A stretch of DNA of 56,442 bases from an uncultured Nitrospiraceae bacterium (lineage in GTDB: Bacteria > Hydrogenedentota > Hydrogenedentia > Hydrogenedentales > SLHB01): contig CAZFOG010000002.1 in the NCBI GenBank assembly GCA_964520685.1, forward strand, positions 1 to 56,442, written 5' to 3'. The notes beneath the pieces are model-generated. The model was not told where the DNA came from, did no database searches, and saw nothing but the letters and a program-made list of their open reading frames with translations. The position numbers and the translations under genes are program-made. Shown one piece after another: positions 21,040 through 32,706 of this stretch. Numbering within the stretch: position 1 is the stretch's first letter; every line of letters begins with the position of its first letter.

Positions 21040-21318
21040 TTAATATTTATCTGTTCTGAATACGTCAATAAAAAGAATTACTACAACCCCAAAAATTCCA
21101 CCGACCCACGTCAGCGTGACATCTGCTATCTCAGGATTACCCGTGCCCCACCACAAATCAATGGCCTCCTTCCCTAAACCTATAAACAGTGGAAATATTC
21201 CTGCAATGGCTTTCACCCAATCAGAGCGCAGGTGGGTAATCGGATCACGCTTTCCAAAGATGAGCATGATCAATATGCTAATAACAGCACCGGCAATGAA
21301 ATGATACAATAGGTCCAT
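21040..21318 (-). CDS. small membrane protein
   Basis: 92 aa with 3 hydrophobic segments. TAATG overlap with the terL stop. AAGGAGGA SD. Confidence 0.6.
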
Positions 21319-22841
21319 TATGTTATCCTCCTTACAAGTTTTTTAAACACCAGCTTGTTAAATGCCCCAGCTGCGGCATCTACCTGGTCCTTATATGTTG
21401 AAAATGGGAAAAAACGATGTTCTTCGATGAAGTCCCGGTTCCAGGGAGCTTTCAGCAACCGGATTCCTCCGTTATTTACCTGAACACTATACGAGTCTGC
21501 ACGTGAAGCTTTATCCCCAGTCGGACGTTCGGCATACACTATGAACCCTGCAAGTCCTAAAATACTAGCCTGTGCAGACTCCTTCCCCCCTGATCCAGGT
21601 TCCTGTTCCAACCATATGATAGTAGAGGTTCCATCCATGCGAGCCGTTTCCTGCACAATAGCTTCCCTGCGTTCTGCTGTCCATCGTCCCCGGCGAACGT
21701 CCTCAATAATCCACCGGCCACTCATCAACTGCAACATTTTACATCCAACAGTAAAAGCAGACCCCTGTTCTTTGGAACCTGCTTTATCCCAGTACCGGAC
21801 TGAACGAAGAATATTACTGGGGTGCGGAAGTTCATCAATAATCTCAAAATTTGCAACCTTGAACATTCCACCTCCTGGAGGCGTTGGATCCTGACCGATC
21901 TGCCCTGCGTATCCATACTGTCCAAGGTCCGCTTCCAGGTCCTCAAGAACTTTCCATGGTAACCGAACAGGGTCCAACAGATCATCCTTGTAAAATTTGT
22001 AGAGTTCAGGTGGATTTATTTTTTCTTTATATCTGCGTGCATCTCCAGGTAGGCATATATGCTTGATGTTATCTTTACGCTTGGACAGGATATGTCCAGC
22101 TGGATCGTCCTGATGTAATCTTTGCATGATGAAGATCGTCGGCGTGATGGCTTTATCCGTCTTACGGGTGGACAGCGTTTGTTCACACCAGCGATTAGAA
22201 GATGCAAGTTCCAATTCGCTCACCGCCTGATTAGGATTCAGAGGGTCGTCCACAATCAGAATATCTCCATGAAACCCCGTCAGCGTACCTCCTACTGATG
22301 TGGAGTACCGGCTACCTCCTGAAACGATTTTGGGAGGCATCCCCTGACGAGCCACTTTTTTCACGATTCTGAAGTTACTTTTAACGTTCTTATCATCCCT
22401 GATGTCCAGGTCTGGATACATTTCACGGAACTTTGATGAACGAATTAGGTCACGACAGTACTCTGCACTCTCCAAAGAAAGGGTGTTAGAATACGATGCA
22501 CAAATAAACCTCATCCAGGGCCATCGTGTCCAACACCAGACGGGAAACATAATTGAACACGTGATGGTTTTCGTAGTTCCGGGAGGAACGTTGATGATCA
22601 GGTCGTATTCACGTGCACGACGCTCTCCAACACGGGTTGCAACCTTTTCCAACTCTCCACAAAGGTACTCGATATGCCAGTTGGGATGGAAAGTGTGAGC
22701 AGAGGCTATATCCCAGAAATATTCAAGGAAATGGAACAATGAACGATCGTTAAGTGCACGGGAGACAGCCAGTGGATTTTGCATTGCAAATTGCAATAAA
22801 TCCTTCTTGGACACGACCTGATCTCTCGTTTGCACTTCCAT
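21318..22841 (-). CDS. terL: terminase large subunit
   Basis: 507 aa. Walker A-like VPPGTTKT, Walker B-like ILIVDDP, and a C-terminal RNaseH-like nuclease region (..WLEQEPGSGGK.., ..DQVDAAAGA..). Downstream of the small subunit. Confidence 0.9.
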   Translation of the reverse strand: MEVQTRDQVVSKKDLLQFAMQNPLAVSRALNDRSLFHFLEYFWDIASAHTFHPNWHIEYLCGELEKVATRVGERRAREYDLIINVPPGTTKTITCSIMFPVWCWTRWPWMRFICASYSNTLSLESAEYCRDLIRSSKFREMYPDLDIRDDKNVKSNFRIVKKVARQGMPPKIVSGGSRYSTSVGGTLTGFHGDILIVDDPLNPNQAVSELELASSNRWCEQTLSTRKTDKAITPTIFIMQRLHQDDPAGHILSKRKDNIKHICLPGDARRYKEKINPPELYKFYKDDLLDPVRLPWKVLEDLEADLGQYGYAGQIGQDPTPPGGGMFKVANFEIIDELPHPSNILRSVRYWDKAGSKEQGSAFTVGCKMLQLMSGRWIIEDVRRGRWTAERREAIVQETARMDGTSTIIWLEQEPGSGGKESAQASILGLAGFIVYAERPTGDKASRADSYSVQVNNGGIRLLKAPWNRDFIEEHRFFPFSTYKDQVDAAAGAFNKLVFKKLVRRIT

Positions 22842-22846
22842 CGTTT

Positions 22847-23362
22847 CTATCCTAATGCAATACTTTCAGCTAACTGTTTCAAGCCGATCTTTTCCACCAG
22901 TTGCAATTCTTCAGTGGAAAGACCGTTGAAATCAAATTTGTTGATGTTGATGTTTGTATGAGTAGTCTCACTCTTGGATACATCGGCCCATAACTGCGGC
23001 TGACGTGCACTCAGCCATTTATTTGCACTCCATGGATCTGGAATTACATGCTTGGTAACGATCGTGCGAACCACCTGCCCCTTGATCACATGCAACACCT
23101 CCTCCTGAAAAGAGAATCCAACAGCACGCTTATACAGGGAAGCCGCCACCTTGGAATCTGCAATGATTTTTCCTTCATCCAACGCCTCCCGAAGTTCAGG
23201 CTTACTCTCCACCCACTGAAGAAACTTATCCTTGGACACTCCAAATGCACGTGCAATATCCTTGTCTTCAGCTCCAAGCAGAGCCATTTCATATGCAATT
23301 AATGGAAACCCACTCCTCCACAACACAGGCCGACCAGCTTTCCCATTACCAGACCGTTTCAT
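22847..23362 (-). CDS. terS: terminase small subunit
   Basis: About 171 aa. N-terminal HTH-like GRPVLWRSGFPLIAYEMALLGAEDKDIARAFGVSKDKFLQWV and ..ADSKVAASLYKRAVG.., typical of phage TerS. The track start at 23368 is a TTG, so I use the ATG at 23362. Confidence 0.75.
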   Translation of the reverse strand: MKRSGNGKAGRPVLWRSGFPLIAYEMALLGAEDKDIARAFGVSKDKFLQWVESKPELREALDEGKIIADSKVAASLYKRAVGFSFQEEVLHVIKGQVVRTIVTKHVIPDPWSANKWLSARQPQLWADVSKSETTHTNININKFDFNGLSTEELQLVEKIGLKQLAESIALG

Positions 23363-23367
23363 CTCCA

Positions 23368-23395
23368 ATTAAATTTACTATTGCGTAAATTTAAT
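23368..23395. promoter_or_regulatory. perfect 11-bp inverted repeat abutting the terS start
   Basis: ATTAAATTTAC (23368-23378), spacer tattgc, GTAAATTTAAT (23385-23395). Lies 5 nt upstream of the terS ATG on the minus strand. Could be an operator or a 5'-UTR hairpin. Confidence 0.5.
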
Positions 23396-23514
23396 GGATT
23401 TAAACCATATAACAATCCCACTTGAACAATTATTTTTTCGTAATTGAATCCACCTCTTCCCCCATCAACACTCCATTAGGACAATTCCCATCGAACTGAA
23501 CCCAAAAAAATTTT

Positions 23515-23542
23515 TTGACTTTATATAATACTCTATTATATA
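23515..23542 (+). promoter_or_regulatory. candidate sigma70-like promoter firing rightward into the non-coding region
   Basis: TTGACT (23515-23520), 16-nt spacer, TATATA (23537-23542), preceded by A7T7. Host promoter rules are unknown, so this is tentative. Confidence 0.3.
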
Positions 23543-23560
23543 TCAACAAATAAAAACACA

Positions 23561-23650
23561 TGAACATGGAGATAAAGAATCCATCTCCAAAAATCCCCCT
23601 ATAATACCAGAGTAATTACCCTATTACTATCCTATGGATATGAACATGGA
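23561..23650. repeat. direct repeat TGAACATGGA, two copies exactly 80 bp apart
   Basis: Copies at 23561-23570 and 23641-23650, with a related ATGAACTGGA at 23661-23670. Located in the AT-rich segment upstream of terS. Confidence 0.6.
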
Positions 23651-23699
23651 TATTTACCATATGAACTGGAAACCTGTTGCAAAAACCACTTGAAAACCA

Positions 23700-23985
23700 A
23701 ATTTGGACTGCAGATTTTTTACGGGTGCATTCCGGCAGTCCCAGAATTTGAATCTGCCGCTGATGGGGGGTGGGGTGACCGTCTCCCAGTCTATCCACCA
23801 CTTGCAGCCAGTCCAGGGACCTTCCACGGTACGTGGCCTGTCCGACACTTGCAATTGGAAAAGCTAAATATATGCACCCCGTCCAGTGGCGTTGTTTCGG
23901 CGGTAAATCAGTCCAGGCCAACGCACATGCATGCGGTGCACGCCACTCTATTCCGGTATCCTATCCCAGGCCTGCTCCCAGGTTA
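23700..23985. other. GC-rich, helix-rich non-coding segment (structured RNA or DNA element of unknown type)
   Basis: Composition jumps relative to the flanks. Nested complementarities: GCAGATT 23710-16 with AATCTGC 23751-57, ACGGGTGCAT 23721-30 with ATGCACCCCGT 23872-82, AGTGGCG 23885-91 with CGCCACT 23941-47, and local palindrome CCACGGTACGTGG 23824-36. Overlapping ORFs on both strands have non-protein-like composition. Confidence 0.4.
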
Positions 23986-23988
23986 TTT

Positions 23989-24330
23989 CAACGCCGTATC
24001 CGATATCAACGCCGTATCCGTTCTCCTATATCCCGTTATTACCTCCGTTCGGTATATAACGGTATCGGTCTATTATCCCGTTTTAGCCTATTTTCGTGCC
24101 GTTTCCGGCAGGATAATACCGTTTTACCTATATACCTATAACCTATCCTATTTTTACGCCGTTATCCCAGTTGACGGGAGGGGAGTTCAACGCTGTTTTT
24201 AACCTATTTTACCGATATTCAGTGATTTTATTAGCGTTATAACTATCTGATATTTAAGCTTATATATACGTTTATAATATTTTTTATAAAATACCGTTAT
24301 AATCTTAAATATTTCGTATATTAGTCCTGA
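23989..24330. repeat. iteron-like CCGT[TA] repeat cluster followed by an AT-rich tract (candidate replication origin or protein-binding array)
   Basis: CAACGCCGTATCCG at 23989-24002 and 24007-24020. TATCCCGTT at 24029-37 and 24074-82. Same-strand CCGT[TA] cores at 23994, 24012, 24018, 24033, 24045, 24078, 24099, 24119, 24159 and 24294. The stretch 24190-24330 is strongly AT-rich. Confidence 0.5.
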
Positions 24331-24339
24331 GAAAGAGAG

Positions 24340-24877
24340 TATAAACGAAAAAGAGGTAAAACGCTGAAAATCAGAGAGATAGCACTCCGGCACCGCAGTC
24401 AAGCCTAACACTGCAACCGACTGAAAATAGGATATTCCGCCACCTGTCGTGAGATAGTGCTTTTGCGGAGGAAAGTAAAACAGCGGATTCTTTGAAAAAA
24501 CTGGGATTATAGCACGGTCCACCGCTCCGCAGTCCAACTCCTCTGGCTTTTCCGGTTAATTACCGGACGGTTTAAGGGATGGATGTGATAAGGTATCCGG
24601 GAGATGCAACCGGATACCGCTAAAACGGGCAAGTAAGCTATTAACTCACCGCTCCAACGCTGTAGGCTACAAGGTAAAGAAATAATCCACTTGAGCTGTT
24701 GATAACGCTGGGACGGGAGTGCGGAAATAACTAATAATACCGCAGCCGGATATCTTTTCAAGTTATCCGGTATTGGTGCCGAACGCCGGGAGTAATAACA
24801 AGGTAATTTTGGCTGAAAGGTTTTTATCTTTTTTAAGGTATCTGAAGAGGTATGCGCAAGTGTACCTCTTTTTTTTT
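24340..24877 (+). ncRNA. candidate ~0.5-kb structured non-coding RNA ending at a strong intrinsic terminator (boundaries approximate, class unknown)
   Basis: No plus-strand ORF of 60 aa or more. Stable hairpins: GGTATCCGG 24592-600 with CCGGATACC 24610-18, and CCGGATA 24746-52 with TATCCGG 24764-70. Long-range GCACTCC 24382-88 with GGAGTGC 24716-22. Repeated CACCGCTCC and CCGCAG boxes. Terminator at 24845-24877. Confidence 0.4.
24845..24877 (+). terminator. Rho-independent terminator
   Basis: AGAGGTA (24846-52), 10-nt loop, TACCTCT (24863-69), then T9. Followed by GCCCGTCC. Confidence 0.8.
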
Positions 24878-24935
24878 GCCCGTCCTGTTATACCTTATTA
24901 ACTCCCGTATTACAGGAGGTAATATTTACCTTCAT

Positions 24936-24949
24936 AACTAAAAACCTTA
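24936..24949 (+). promoter_or_regulatory. early-gene leader box AACTAAAAACCTTA
   Basis: Box ends 5 nt before ATG 24955. Confidence 0.6.
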
Positions 24950-24954
24950 TTAAG

Positions 24955-25317
24955 ATGAGCAAAACCGTTATTAATTCGAACGAAACTGCCGCTGAGAGCA
25001 GTGTAAACGTATCCGAAACTGCCGCCACTCCGGTTAAAAACAAACCGGCAGCTGGGAAAAAACCGGCAAAAAAGGAAAAGAAACTGCTGAGCACGTTCGA
25101 ATTTGCCCGCGCAGGCGCAGTCGCGTTGGCAATCCGCCAGCTGAAACTCTCCGGTCACCCTGAGAAGCTTGCCGCAGCTAGTGAAAAAGTTATCGCACTG
25201 GCAGACAAAATTTACTCCGAAAAAACCGGAGCACCCTCAAACCTGAAGGAAAGCAAGTGGAATTTCCTTTATGCCACACGATTCCTGAAGTACTATGAAC
25301 AGCCGGCAAAGAAGTAA
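24955..25317 (+). CDS. early hypothetical protein (Lys/Ala-rich N-terminal tail)
   Basis: 120 aa. Leader box upstream and two terminators downstream, so it looks like a monocistronic unit. Confidence 0.7.
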   Translation: MSKTVINSNETAAESSVNVSETAATPVKNKPAAGKKPAKKEKKLLSTFEFARAGAVALAIRQLKLSGHPEKLAAASEKVIALADKIYSEKTGAPSNLKESKWNFLYATRFLKYYEQPAKK

Positions 25318-25325
25318 GCCAACTG

Positions 25326-25355
25326 AAAAAAGAGTCCAAGTGACTCTTTTTTTTT
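25326..25355 (+). terminator. Rho-independent terminator (A-tract/T-tract, potentially bidirectional)
   Basis: AAGAGTC (25330-36), loop caagt, GACTCTT (25342-48), then T-run to 25355. Followed by GCCCGTCC, as at 24878. Confidence 0.8.
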
Positions 25356-25375
25356 GCCCGTCCGTCATCAAAATT

Positions 25376-25402
25376 AGAGATCATCCGGTGATCTCTTTTT
25401 TT
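25376..25402 (+). terminator. second Rho-independent terminator
   Basis: AGAGATCA (25376-83), loop tccgg, TGATCTCT (25389-96), then T-run. Confidence 0.75.
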
Positions 25403-25906: not shown

Positions 25907-25919
25907 TACCGCTAAAATG

Positions 25920-25950
25920 AACCGCTCCTATGCGTGGGAGCGGTTTTTTT
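25920..25950 (+). terminator. Rho-independent terminator
   Basis: AACCGCTCC (25920-28), 8-nt loop, GGAGCGGTT (25937-45), then T-run. Confidence 0.8.
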
Positions 25951-26951: not shown

Positions 26952-27212
26952 ATGGAAAATGAAGAAAAGATTCAAGACTTGAAAAGCTTTTTAGAGCAAC
27001 ACAAGGCTCTAGGAGCTTTTTTGAACGGCGTATGCAGGAGATCATCATCTCTTGCTAAAAAAGAAGATCCAATCCACGCTTTCTGCTCAGAAAGAACAGA
27101 TTATACGGATTGGACCACCGACTGCTTTACCTGGAGTGCAACTTACCCAGGTAGAGCATTTTGGGAGAACATTCACCGTGATTGGAATGTTTTCTGTGCA
27201 ATGAATTATTAA
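26952..27212 (+). CDS. early hypothetical protein
   Basis: 86-aa ORF after the leader box and the start-stop element. Confidence 0.55.
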   Translation: MENEEKIQDLKSFLEQHKALGAFLNGVCRRSSSLAKKEDPIHAFCSERTDYTDWTTDCFTWSATYPGRAFWENIHRDWNVFCAMNY

Positions 27213-27218
27213 TTTATC

Positions 27219-27232
27219 AACTAAAAACCTTA
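27219..27232 (+). promoter_or_regulatory. leader box AACTAAAAACCTTA
   Basis: Ends 6 nt before ATG 27239. Confidence 0.6.
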
Positions 27233-27238
27233 AAAAAG

Positions 27239-28828
27239 ATGGCAAAACTTACAACAAACGTTAGAGAAGTGATAGCAGAAGCACTTTCCGAACAAGAAAG
27301 AAAAGCTTTACACGGATATCGTGGTAGCATCATTGTGAATACTATTCAACGTGGTAGGATTCGTCTTGACTGTATATTTTCCTTCTACAATGAAGGAATA
27401 TATGCATGTCAGAATGAATTGGACGGAGCTGAGTGTAATGTGAAATGGGGACAAAGGTACTCATGGAGACTTTCAAATGAAACTTTGATCTTTATACCCC
27501 CTTCTACGCAAGTCAAGATCAATGTAATGAGCAGGAGACTTCTCCAAACCTTAACAGATCCAGAATTTGTTAAGGAACACAGAATGGAACTGTGTTTACA
27601 GAGAATTTTGAATATGACGAAAGATGTAGAATTCACATCAAATAAAACGTTGAATGGACACCACTTTGATCTTAGAAAAGGGGAAATCAGTTATTATCCC
27701 AATAATGTTCCTCTTGCTATGGCGATGAACGGCACATGGGCACGTGAAGGTAGAGTCACTTTTAAAGTAGGAAAGTTCATCAAGATGTTACTCGAAACGG
27801 AATCTGCGTTCATAACGGCAGATGGAGATTTACTTGATATTTCCAATCACGAAGATGCTAAACTGATTACATCATTCTTTGAAATAAAGAGTGGATTAGT
27901 AAAAAGTACGGCATACCAGGATTGTATAAAGGTCAGTGATGATCCTTCTGCTATTTATGGTATGGAAACCGCTGAAAATAGTGGCACTTTAGCCTCTAGC
28001 TGTATGCGTCCTGAAAGTGGACACGGTTGCCACGAAGGAATGGATTGGTATTCGATGATAGGAACAAAGATAGTATACATAGCAAATCCAAAAACGGATG
28101 AGCTATGCGCTAGGGCATTGCTCTGGGAGAATTGCTATTTTGTTCAGAAAGTCGATGACCGCCGTATTCGTAAAGTTGGTGCTCCATTTACTTTTTTGGA
28201 TCGCATATACGGAGATGAAGCTTCCATGGCTCTAATGAAAGAATGGGCTAAAGAACAGGGCTATTTCTACAAGTCAGAGCAAAGCAGTCGTTCCAACACT
28301 TTGATTTCCCCCACTGGAGAGGTTGTATCTAAACAATTCATATGGGATAAGGAAATCACTGAAGTGTTTGAATATTCTCCTTATATGGACACTTTCGTTT
28401 ACTTATATGGAGAATTGAAAAGATTGGGAACAGGAGCAGCATCTGATACGAGTGGATACGATTTGACCGACAGTAGTGGGGACGCCTTTGATGATATACT
28501 AATTTGTCCTAATTGCGGAAAAATCGCACCTGGCCTGCGCGCAATTGGCCCTGAAGATTCAGACCTGACAGGTTCCTTTGGATGTACCTTTTGTGCTGTG
28601 GAAACTGCAAATTCAGAAAATTCAGGAACAATCTGGCTCTTCAAAAGCGATGTGCTAGAGTATTATGATTTGAAAGGTATTTTCCGTATCATTCCACTTT
28701 CAGAAGCAAAGGATTTGAATATCGTATCTGCTTATTATCGTGGTAGAGGACTAGTGAACGTGGAAATAGTGAAACCTGAACCCATGGTATATCAGGAAGA
28801 TGAAGAATTAATTTTGGAGGAGGTTTAA
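27239..28828 (+). CDS. large early protein of unknown function with C-terminal Cys4 zinc-ribbon-like motif
   Basis: About 529 aa from the ATG behind the leader box (the track ORF starts at 27182). Conserved-looking core ..ASSCMRPESGHGCHEGMDWY...ARALLWEN...FLDRIYGDE.. and CPNCGK..(24 aa)..CTFC. No family assignment possible by eye. Confidence 0.7.
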   Translation: MAKLTTNVREVIAEALSEQERKALHGYRGSIIVNTIQRGRIRLDCIFSFYNEGIYACQNELDGAECNVKWGQRYSWRLSNETLIFIPPSTQVKINVMSRRLLQTLTDPEFVKEHRMELCLQRILNMTKDVEFTSNKTLNGHHFDLRKGEISYYPNNVPLAMAMNGTWAREGRVTFKVGKFIKMLLETESAFITADGDLLDISNHEDAKLITSFFEIKSGLVKSTAYQDCIKVSDDPSAIYGMETAENSGTLASSCMRPESGHGCHEGMDWYSMIGTKIVYIANPKTDELCARALLWENCYFVQKVDDRRIRKVGAPFTFLDRIYGDEASMALMKEWAKEQGYFYKSEQSSRSNTLISPTGEVVSKQFIWDKEITEVFEYSPYMDTFVYLYGELKRLGTGAASDTSGYDLTDSSGDAFDDILICPNCGKIAPGLRAIGPEDSDLTGSFGCTFCAVETANSENSGTIWLFKSDVLEYYDLKGIFRIIPLSEAKDLNIVSAYYRGRGLVNVEIVKPEPMVYQEDEELILEEV

Positions 28829-30163: not shown

Positions 30164-30172
30164 TAAAATGCC

Positions 30173-32066: not shown

Positions 32067-32264
32067 ATGGACTACACAAAATTACTTTGTTTCGACAAGT
32101 TAGACCTGATTCAAGGAATGATACAGCATAACCTTCTTAATCAGGAGGAAATAAATTACATATGGCATGAATTAAATGACGTGTCACATGTAATAGATGA
32201 GTATATTGACCGACGTCAGATAAGAGACAGGCGTAATACTCAAAAGAAAGATGGAACATATTAA
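32067..32264 (+). CDS. hypothetical protein
   Basis: 65-aa ORF in an operonic position. Confidence 0.5.
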   Translation: MDYTKLLCFDKLDLIQGMIQHNLLNQEEINYIWHELNDVSHVIDEYIDRRQIRDRRNTQKKDGTY

Positions 32265-32706
32265 TCTCATTCGGAAGATCGCTTGGTCTTTTCATAACTC
32301 TACTGGGATTGACTGGGACGATCTTTTTCAAGAAGCTGCGTATCATTACTTACGAGCCTTGAAATCTTATGACCCATCTAAAAAAGTTTCCCTTTCAACG
32401 TATGTATGGAACTTCGTAAAAAACGAATTGATACTGTACATCCGGAAAGAGAAAAAGAATTCAGAACCTTTAGAATCCATCGACTCCATAAAAAGTTGGA
32501 GTCAAACGGGTTCTCCCTATTGGGAAGGTCTATCATCCACGGCTCAAAAGGCCGCTGAAGAAGTATTAAAACACCCTGAAGAGTTTTCGTGTTTGGATCC
32601 TCTCAACGCCCGTTTACTGTTAAGGTACAGGCTTTTAAAGAGCGATTGGACATTGAAAGACGTTAGAGTTGCAATGCGTAATTTAAAAAATGCATACTCG
32701 AAATAA
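32251..32706 (+). CDS. sigma-70 region-2-containing protein (second phage sigma-like factor)
   Basis: 151 aa. LIRKIAWSFHNSTGIDWDDLFQEAAYHYLRALKSYDPSKKVSLSTYVWNFVKNELILYIRKE matches sigma-70 regions 2.1-2.4 (DLxQE...Y/FDP....F.TY....I). The C-terminal part is short and only weakly like region 4. Confidence 0.65.
   Translation: MEHINLIRKIAWSFHNSTGIDWDDLFQEAAYHYLRALKSYDPSKKVSLSTYVWNFVKNELILYIRKEKKNSEPLESIDSIKSWSQTGSPYWEGLSSTAQKAAEEVLKHPEEFSCLDPLNARLLLRYRLLKSDWTLKDVRVAMRNLKNAYSK

Follow-up and report, generated by a model that had tools for sequence, protein, structure and literature searches.

A large structured RNA heads the early gene arm of a phage genome, and the last nucleotides before its terminator are complementary to the leaders of the phage's own early genes. 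Positions 24330-24877 on the plus strand of the window (the whole 56,442-nucleotide stretch of DNA analyzed here) very probably constitute a real non-coding RNA gene whose product is structured and abundant. The best-supported account of its role, judged from sequence comparison and held at slightly short of an even chance, is that of an early riboregulator that would pair with the translation start regions of early genes.

The phage and the gap between its gene arms

The window is the genome of a phage of a type that infects Bacteroidota. The nearest matches of its large terminase (21318-22841, minus strand) are the terminases of Croceibacter and Riemerella phages, at 36-37% identity; Shine-Dalgarno sequences are absent from the phage genes, and a Bacteroidota MAG bin includes the contig of one relative. 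A blastn search against GenBank phages returned no matches, neither an integrase nor a repressor was found in the annotated part of the phage, and ARAGORN identified no tRNA and no tmRNA in the 56-kb window. Structural and packaging genes make up the leftward arm, from 23368, and replication and other genes the rightward arm, from 24955; the two are separated by 1.6 kb without a credible gene, of which the RNA unit is the right-hand third.

The rest of this ORF-poor gap has two distinct parts. A conserved GC-rich block at 23640-23960, identical between clades over approximately 23812-23848, shows very high contig depth in some wastewater and sludge RNA runs; in four other runs the high depth at 23750-23950 did not recur on the cognate reference, and it is explained in part by a 37-nt block that strains have in common. 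A small minus-strand ORF within the GC-rich block, ending ...FQFIW, is not kept among relatives, its window copy having lost the ATG, and RNAalifold found no net covariation there; the block could be a late-promoter or leader element of the packaging operon. The adjoining 23940-24200 segment is pyrimidine-rich, with an 18-bp tandem repeat at 23985-24020 and many copies of CCGTAT, CCGTT and TATCC, and looks like iterons or operator sites. Further into the rightward arm, the phage encodes a sigma-70 region-2 protein (32251-32706; Pfam E = 2e-11) that probably directs transcription from middle or late promoters.

Extent and non-coding status of the RNA unit

The unit and its immediate surroundings are as follows.

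24317-24324, plus strand: likely -7 promoter box TATATTAG, matching five of the six fixed positions of TAnnTTTG
24330-24877, plus strand: non-coding RNA of approximately 548 nt, its start inferred from the -7 box and its end given by the terminator
24844-24877, plus strand: intrinsic terminator with a 12-pair stem (24844-24871), a GCAA loop and nine U
24955-25317, plus strand: first early gene (gene 1), 120 aa, with a basic disordered N-terminus followed by four confident helices

The Bacteroides sigma-ABfr promoter consensus consists of TAnnTTTG at -7 and TTTG at -33; no clear copy of the -33 TTTG was seen upstream of TATATTAG. At the 5' edge of the unit, GTATATTAG is kept in five of six lineages, distant ones included, and is weaker in L005. 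A first-pass annotation of this DNA had described a terminator-bounded transcript without an ORF, ending in a 7-bp stem followed by nine T. The transcript at 24330-24877 indeed lacks any conserved ORF, and its 3' end is a strong intrinsic terminator, in which the nine T stand as described and the stem is longer than had been stated. As in Rho-independent terminators generally, a G+C stem-loop is followed by a U run on the transcribed strand; the element is invariant except for one GU-to-AU change, and a terminator lies at the equivalent place in every lineage, with a different sequence in L005, L107, L126 and L128. An identical 20-nt sequence, CTCTTTTTTTTTGCCCGTCC, occurs at 24866-24885 and 25344-25363, after two successive terminators (that of the RNA and that of gene 1), and further terminators at 25376-25396 and 25919-25946 mean that the first early units are each bracketed by terminators.

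No plus-strand ORF of 60 aa or more exists in 24340-24877, the longest being a 42-aa TTG ORF that crosses the terminator, and gene callers applied to 10 independent relative contigs called nothing upstream of the first early gene. Discovery of a translated small ORF had been named in the first-pass annotation as an outcome that would overturn the proposal; no ORF on either strand is kept across lineages. The window does contain minus-strand ORFs of 84 and 112 aa with TTG starts, as a hidden small protein-coding gene would require, but neither is kept (L005 has a single 39-aa ORF, and in L107 no ORF exceeds 32 aa), the lengths of indels between clades do not fit a triplet frame, and substitutions follow base pairing, so that we regard such a gene as extremely improbable.

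Gene 1 lies directly after the RNA in every lineage but L120, in which a 138-aa gene intervenes. Its protein matches no sequence in Pfam, PHROG or PDB and no fold at E < 1, and as it is without relatives in these searches, nothing indicates a partnership with the RNA.

The location of the unit, at the divergence point of the two gene arms and adjoining the pyrimidine-rich CCGTAT/CCGTT tandem and dispersed repeats (23940-24200), would also suit an origin-associated transcript, that is, a structured primer or activator RNA for replication from the upstream repeat-rich region. However, the efficient terminator points away from the repeats, the RNA is abundant in free form, conservation among relatives is lower in the repeat block than anywhere else in the gap, and no feature prone to RNA-DNA hybrid formation was seen; we consider an origin transcript very improbable.

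Relatives of the RNA

Homologues came from three sources: loci anchored on the terminase, pattern scans of the DNA in three collections, and contigs that carry a gene-1 relative. Six of the 12 metagenome pattern matches were set aside as chance. Four lineages can be aligned, namely the window clade, the L004 clade (approximately 79% identical to the window), the L005 clade (approximately 52%) and L107, which carries a shorter version of the RNA; their homologues come only from anaerobic digester, sludge or wastewater samples. Five members (L114, L110, L111, L109 and L100) are mosaics of window-type and L004-type RNA sequence, indicating recombination inside the RNA gene, and some of these mosaics have single mismatches in long-range helices.

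More distant relatives of gene 1 (P0010-P0013) sit in phages L128 and L126/L127/L131/L120. Two distant lineages have an ORF-free unit of approximately 430-680 nt at the equivalent place, of which only the ends are kept: GTATATTAG at the 5' end, and a UUUUAAGGUA-like motif plus terminator at the 3' end. These units are the following.

L128, positions 2291-2718: distant ORF-free unit
L126, positions 269-885: distant ORF-free unit
L120, positions approximately 2244-2926: distant ORF-free unit

Their interiors are not recognized by covariance models, and the distant lineages were recognized only by eye, through the shared ends. Neither nhmmer nor the three covariance models added a homologue from 75 TerL-related loci or from 13 loci with distant gene-1 relatives.

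A conserved fold

The body of the RNA (approximately 24360-24785) folds into three conserved domains, the last of which opens with a conserved block.

24363-24497, plus strand: 5' domain, with closing helix 24371-78/24488-95, hairpin 24395-24414 and long arm 24417-24486
24524-24630, plus strand: middle domain, with junction helix 24524-27/24627-30, arm 24528-24587 and hairpin 24592-24618
24631-24783, plus strand: 3' domain, with irregular long arm 24644-24720, hairpin 24720-24744 and hairpin 24745-24772
24631-24645, plus strand: conserved block AAGUAAGCUAUUAAC, in which the opening ten bases, AAGUAAGCUA, do not vary among the window, L004 and L005 lineages

The long arm of the 5' domain is capped by a GNRA loop (GUGA, 24449-52), and the arm of the middle domain by a hairpin UCCGGU/ACCGGA. 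A covariance model of the 5' domain (R1) built from the window and L004 clades only detects L005, L108 and L107 at E of approximately 1e-11, and a model of the 3' domain (R2) seeded on the L004 clade only detects the window clade at E = 1e-19 and L005/L108 at 1e-5. In the 5' domain 96.6% of cells pair and 16 of 32 pairs have changes on both sides, a result reached by none of 500 shuffles; with the partners slid by 1-3 columns as a control, pairing drops to 33-54%. Both-side changes are present in 10 of the 38 pairs of the middle domain and in 20 of the 36 pairs of the 3' domain, where 94.7% of cells pair and again none of 500 shuffles does as well.

Since the alignments of the 5' and 3' domains were fitted to the structure and are biased towards it, the whole structure of 124 pairs was recounted on a plain MAFFT alignment of 16 sequences that was not fitted to structure (A4). 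On this alignment 96% of 1823 cells pair, and the covariation score is 0.145 as compared with 0.078 in shuffles, none of 500 reaching 0.145; slid controls pair at 40-48%. The comparative folding with related phages that the first-pass annotation had called for thus yields what is generally looked for in a structured non-coding RNA: pairs kept through compensatory changes at levels above the controls. Many pairs are G-U on the plus strand, with A-C mismatches as their minus-strand equivalents, which identifies the plus strand as the one that is folded. The folding energy is only mildly unusual (z = -2.8 on the plus strand and -3.1 on the minus strand), and since it is nearly unremarkable on both strands, the case rests on covariation, conservation and expression.

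Not all of the pairings first seen by eye belong to this fold. Both hairpins, the 9-bp one at 24592-24618 and that at 24746-24770, are confirmed, and relatives keep their pairing through both-side changes. The complementary sequences of a proposed long-range pairing between 24382-88 and 24716-22 (GCACTCC/GGAGTGC) are present, but they have a mismatch in the L004 clade, and the 3' arm covaries with 24644-24652 instead, one pair there being AU in 10 sequences, UA in 4 and GU in 1. The repeated boxes to which attention had been drawn are treated as incidental, the second copy of CACCGCTCC (24647) not being conserved in the L004 clade.

Four further candidate interactions were considered and dropped. 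A pairing of GCUGAAA with UUUUGGC (P2) was left out on account of a register shift between clades. A pseudoknot between 24388-94 and 24775-81 (P3) appears possible by eye in all lineages, has mismatched variants and is not claimed; the palindromic loop UAAUUA as a kissing site is lost in the L085 group; and a competing antiterminator that the shared AAGAGGUA would form lacks conservation in L005 and L107.

The block AAGUAAGCUAUUAAC is probably unpaired, and hairpin 24720-24744 presents a conserved 15-nt loop, AAAUAACUAAUAAUA. Neither the AAGUAAGCUA block nor this loop has a complementary target anywhere in the window.

Comparison with known RNA families

Rfam 15 gave no family at gathering score over the whole window, and a search of 23300-25000 at E values up to 10 returned noise only, with ROOL and GOLLD absent. 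Judged by this lack of an Rfam match, the RNA is not ROOL, GOLLD, tmRNA, RNase P, 6S, a group I or group II intron or a riboswitch; the Rfam search had been suggested by the first-pass annotation, whose failure to match the RNA by eye to RNase P, tmRNA, 6S or intron signatures agrees with the Rfam 15 and ARAGORN results. A survey of structured RNAs in phages reported motifs averaging 67 nt (PMC10690425), among which pieces of this RNA could be represented; we found no description of the whole RNA in the literature.

The closest kind to this RNA is that of ROOL and GOLLD, large ornate RNAs of phages and prophages whose function is unproven (PMC5737381, PMC12286853). The likeness lies in a length of several hundred nucleotides, many helices and junctions, carriage by phages, a stand-alone gene with its own terminator, high expression and a function that is unproven. 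Homo-oligomeric assembly is a further criterion for ROOL, GOLLD and OLE RNAs (PMC12286853). ROOL and GOLLD are often found near tRNA genes, whereas the RNA described here has no tRNA neighbors, belongs to a Bacteroidota-type phage, is narrowly distributed and has a fast-evolving interior.

Expression in metatranscriptomes

The prominence of the RNA among phage transcripts is evident from public RNA data, 22 runs of which contain words of the region. For 11 of the 12 runs examined, contigs placed on the window reference cover the RNA at a depth similar to that of the next gene, and for one run they cover its first third only; the structural genes at 14-20.6 kb have essentially zero coverage. 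On a cognate, L004-type reference, contig depth in four sludge metatranscriptomes is 68-250 for the RNA and 72-335 for gene 1, compared with 3-25 on the terminase side, 26-85 for the second early gene and 0-26 beyond it. The RNA, at approximately 10 times the contig depth of its flanks, is among the most abundant phage transcripts in sludge metatranscriptomes; these depths, and the RNA ends given below, derive from assembled contigs and not from strand-resolved reads. One contig covers 24305-24880. Adapter remnants on the RNA have the same polarity as those on neighboring plus-strand mRNAs, which fits transcription of the plus strand provided that the libraries were stranded. The earlier proposal of a non-coding RNA product at the head of the early arm is therefore borne out by a unit that is conserved, structured and transcribed.

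Within the unit, fragment ends joined to adapter sequence form one cluster.

24786-24804, plus strand: cluster of adapter-joined fragment ends, at approximately 24792 in two runs from different studies and approximately 24803 in a third

Coverage falls over the tail and terminator (24815-24896) in most runs. Together these observations hint at processing near 24792 that would free a piece of approximately 85 nt, made up of tail and terminator. Contigs of the gene-1 transcript begin at 24923-24925 in five runs, directly after adapter sequence in two of them, from which it follows that gene 1 has its own 5' end past the terminator and a leader of approximately 31 nt.

A tail complementary to early-gene leaders

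A striking complementarity links the 3' end of the RNA to the genes that follow it. The elements concerned are these.

24815-24843, plus strand: anti-leader tail GAAAGGUUUUUAUCUUUUUUAAGGUAUCU, U-rich with two AAGG cores, the last 29 nt before the terminator
24923-24954, plus strand: gene-1 5' UTR, holding leader motif UAAAAACCUUAUUAAG at 24939-24954
25592, 26219, 26663, 26932, 27226 and 30157, plus strand: copies of leader motif AACCTTA

The early-gene leaders share the motif UAAAAACCUUAA, which ends approximately 5 nt before the start codon and to which the tail is complementary. AACCTTA, usually in the context CUAAAAACCUUAA, starts 11-13 nt before the ATGs at 24955, 25604, 26231, 26675 and 27239, and slightly further from the starts at 26952 and 30173. 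Because its spacing to the start codon is fixed, one copy sits within the preceding ORF, and it lies inside the mapped gene-1 leader, we take the motif to be a translation-start signal acting at the level of RNA. Two gene starts in this part of the arm differ from first appearances: for the ORF listed from TTG 27182 (27182-28828, 548 aa), motif and spacing favor ATG 27239 (529 aa), and the ATG at 30168 is followed by a stop, so that the helicase starts at GTG 30173.

Two segments of the tail are exact reverse complements of sequence at early-gene starts: AAGGUUUUUA matches 24939-48 in the gene-1 leader (10 nt), and AUCUUUUUUAAGGU matches 27227-40 (14 nt), which includes the AU of the AUG. Tail-leader duplex energies relative to shuffled tails correspond to z = -5 to -7 in five lineages and to -2.6 and -3.4 in two, the A-run/U-run part of the complementarity being of low complexity. 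Ranked for pairing with the leaders, the tail stands 45th of 11280 genome windows from both strands, and the best 25 of the 44 windows above it are literal antisense of leaders.

All six lineages retain UUUUAAGGUA ahead of a terminator, with UUAAAGGUA as its form in L128, and at the sequence level the tail and the leaders change together in two other lineages. In L128 the leaders read CCUUUAA and the tail copy nearest the terminator reads UUAAAGGUA; as two copies of the commoner two-A version are also present, the covariation in L128 rests on the terminator-nearest copy. In L126-type phages the leaders read CUUAAAAUCUU and the tail AAGAUUUUAAG. As the only sequence-specific lead to function, the tail-leader complementarity points to control of phage early-gene translation. 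None of the observations speaks for the role in host takeover or anti-defense that the first-pass annotation had suggested for the RNA.

The same complementarity, between a tail and a gene-1 leader that lie near each other, could instead act in cis, with RNA, tail, terminator and gene 1 forming one regulated primary transcript in which the terminator attenuates and, upon read-through, the tail hides the gene-1 start approximately 100 nt downstream. In one metatranscriptome a contig of depth 120 does connect the tail, across the terminator, with gene 1, another contig covers 24842-25339, and gene 1 is as abundant as the RNA. However, the gene-1 contigs that begin at 24923-25, two of them with adapter at the end, and the dip in coverage at 24815-24896 speak for separate transcripts; the terminator is strong and conserved; and the best match of the tail is to a gene 2.4 kb away, through a motif common to at least five genes. 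We consider the cis arrangement improbable.

How accessible the tail is may depend on a predicted 5'-3' closing helix between its U-runs and the A-rich 5' end, which is invariant and is thus neither supported nor excluded by covariation. In the predicted ensemble most of the U-run sequence of the tail is bound to the A-rich 5' strand (unpaired probability 0.0-0.4), and only the AAGG cores are open. This predicted pairing of much of the tail to the 5' end is one of several points in favor of a function seated in the folded body, which would be a scaffold, a self-assembling particle, a decoy or an enzyme comparable to ROOL or GOLLD, perhaps directed at a host factor or a defense system. The tail match would then be a by-product: the tail would serve only as the U-rich side of the closing helix, or would represent a DNA motif copied in inverted orientation. 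The large size of the RNA, its division into several domains, its high abundance, and the invariant unpaired AAGUAAGCUA and loop AAAUAACUAAUAAUA without a phage target are as expected of such a body, and phage-borne large RNAs without known function exist (PMC5737381, PMC12286853). On the other hand, it is the interior that fails to be conserved in distant lineages, while the ends and the tail are kept, and the tail tracks the lineage-specific variants of the leaders. A body-centered function ranks second among the accounts considered and is, in our judgment, rather unlikely.

A possible riboregulator of early-gene translation

For the riboregulator, the sequence of events would be as follows. 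Transcription of the RNA would begin at a host-type promoter where the early arm starts and would end at the unit's own terminator, and the tail, carried either by the full RNA or by a 3' fragment of approximately 85 nt cleaved near 24792, would pair with the translation initiation regions of early genes. As the stable RNA accumulates, it would determine how much early protein is made, or when, most likely by shutting synthesis off. The folded body may contribute stability, a partner protein, or control of access to the tail through the 5'-3' closing helix. Two considerations temper this account: equivalent tracking of the lineages would be seen if the tail were a leader or promoter motif copied in inverted orientation at the DNA level, and a body of 550 nt far exceeds what an antisense seed needs, so that the main function of the RNA may lie elsewhere.

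Precedent for the proposed mode of action comes from the phylum of the presumed host. The Bacteroides sRNAs GibS and FopS pair beside the start codon and thereby block translation, and it is this segment adjacent to the start codon that matters for initiation in Bacteroidota (PMC11697453). The phage RNA resembles these sRNAs of Bacteroides thetaiotaomicron in its phylum context, stand-alone gene, likely host-type promoter and intrinsic terminator, and in a proposed action that would block initiation on several mRNAs by pairing beside their start codons. In the FopS consensus, too, UUUAAGGUU stands immediately before the terminator. GibS and FopS are short (the Rfam FopS model has 71 positions), with the seed at the 5' end, whereas the RNA described here is approximately 7 times longer, and it is encoded by a phage, whose own genes it would target. 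The Rfam FopS model scores 18 bits here against a gathering threshold of 56, the aligned part being UUUAAGGU and the terminator only. Set beside a FopS/GibS-type seed, the tail has the complementarity and the tracking across lineages in silico, and the seed is partly paired in the predicted fold.

Phages offer two further points of comparison. T4 RegA is a protein that acts as a translational repressor of early mRNAs and recognizes a set of start regions, so that in T4, as proposed here, one early product turns down translation of a set of early messages; RegA is a protein, whereas the proposed recognizer here is an RNA and the shared site a defined antisense target. The c4 RNA of P1/P7 and the CI RNA of P4 are antisense immunity RNAs of approximately 77-80 nt, processed from leaders, that serve lysogenic immunity. 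They share with the present RNA an origin at the head of the early region and, as proposed for the latter, action by pairing with repeated short sites in early transcripts; in contrast, the RNA here is large and folded, and its candidate targets are the start regions of many genes.

A further-reaching and doubtful extension is that the riboregulator governs the whole early regulon through one shared leader motif in the Shine-Dalgarno position, the body gating the tail or docking it to the ribosome or a partner protein. Shine-Dalgarno pairing is largely absent from Bacteroidota. In the boldest form of the regulon proposal, the RNA may supply in trans a pairing partner that marks early messages for, or against, translation.

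Significance

Bacterial and phage RNAs of such size and complexity are rare and mostly without known function, and this one offers a testable handle in the form of a defined tail, defined targets and natural compensatory variants. If the pairing is real, we know of no earlier case in which a phage times its early program by means of a large structured antisense RNA, and the finding would also bear on the choice of translation start sites in Bacteroidota. Should the tail idea fail, the RNA still represents a new, highly expressed, covariation-supported family of large RNAs, and one that is a good subject for structure determination.
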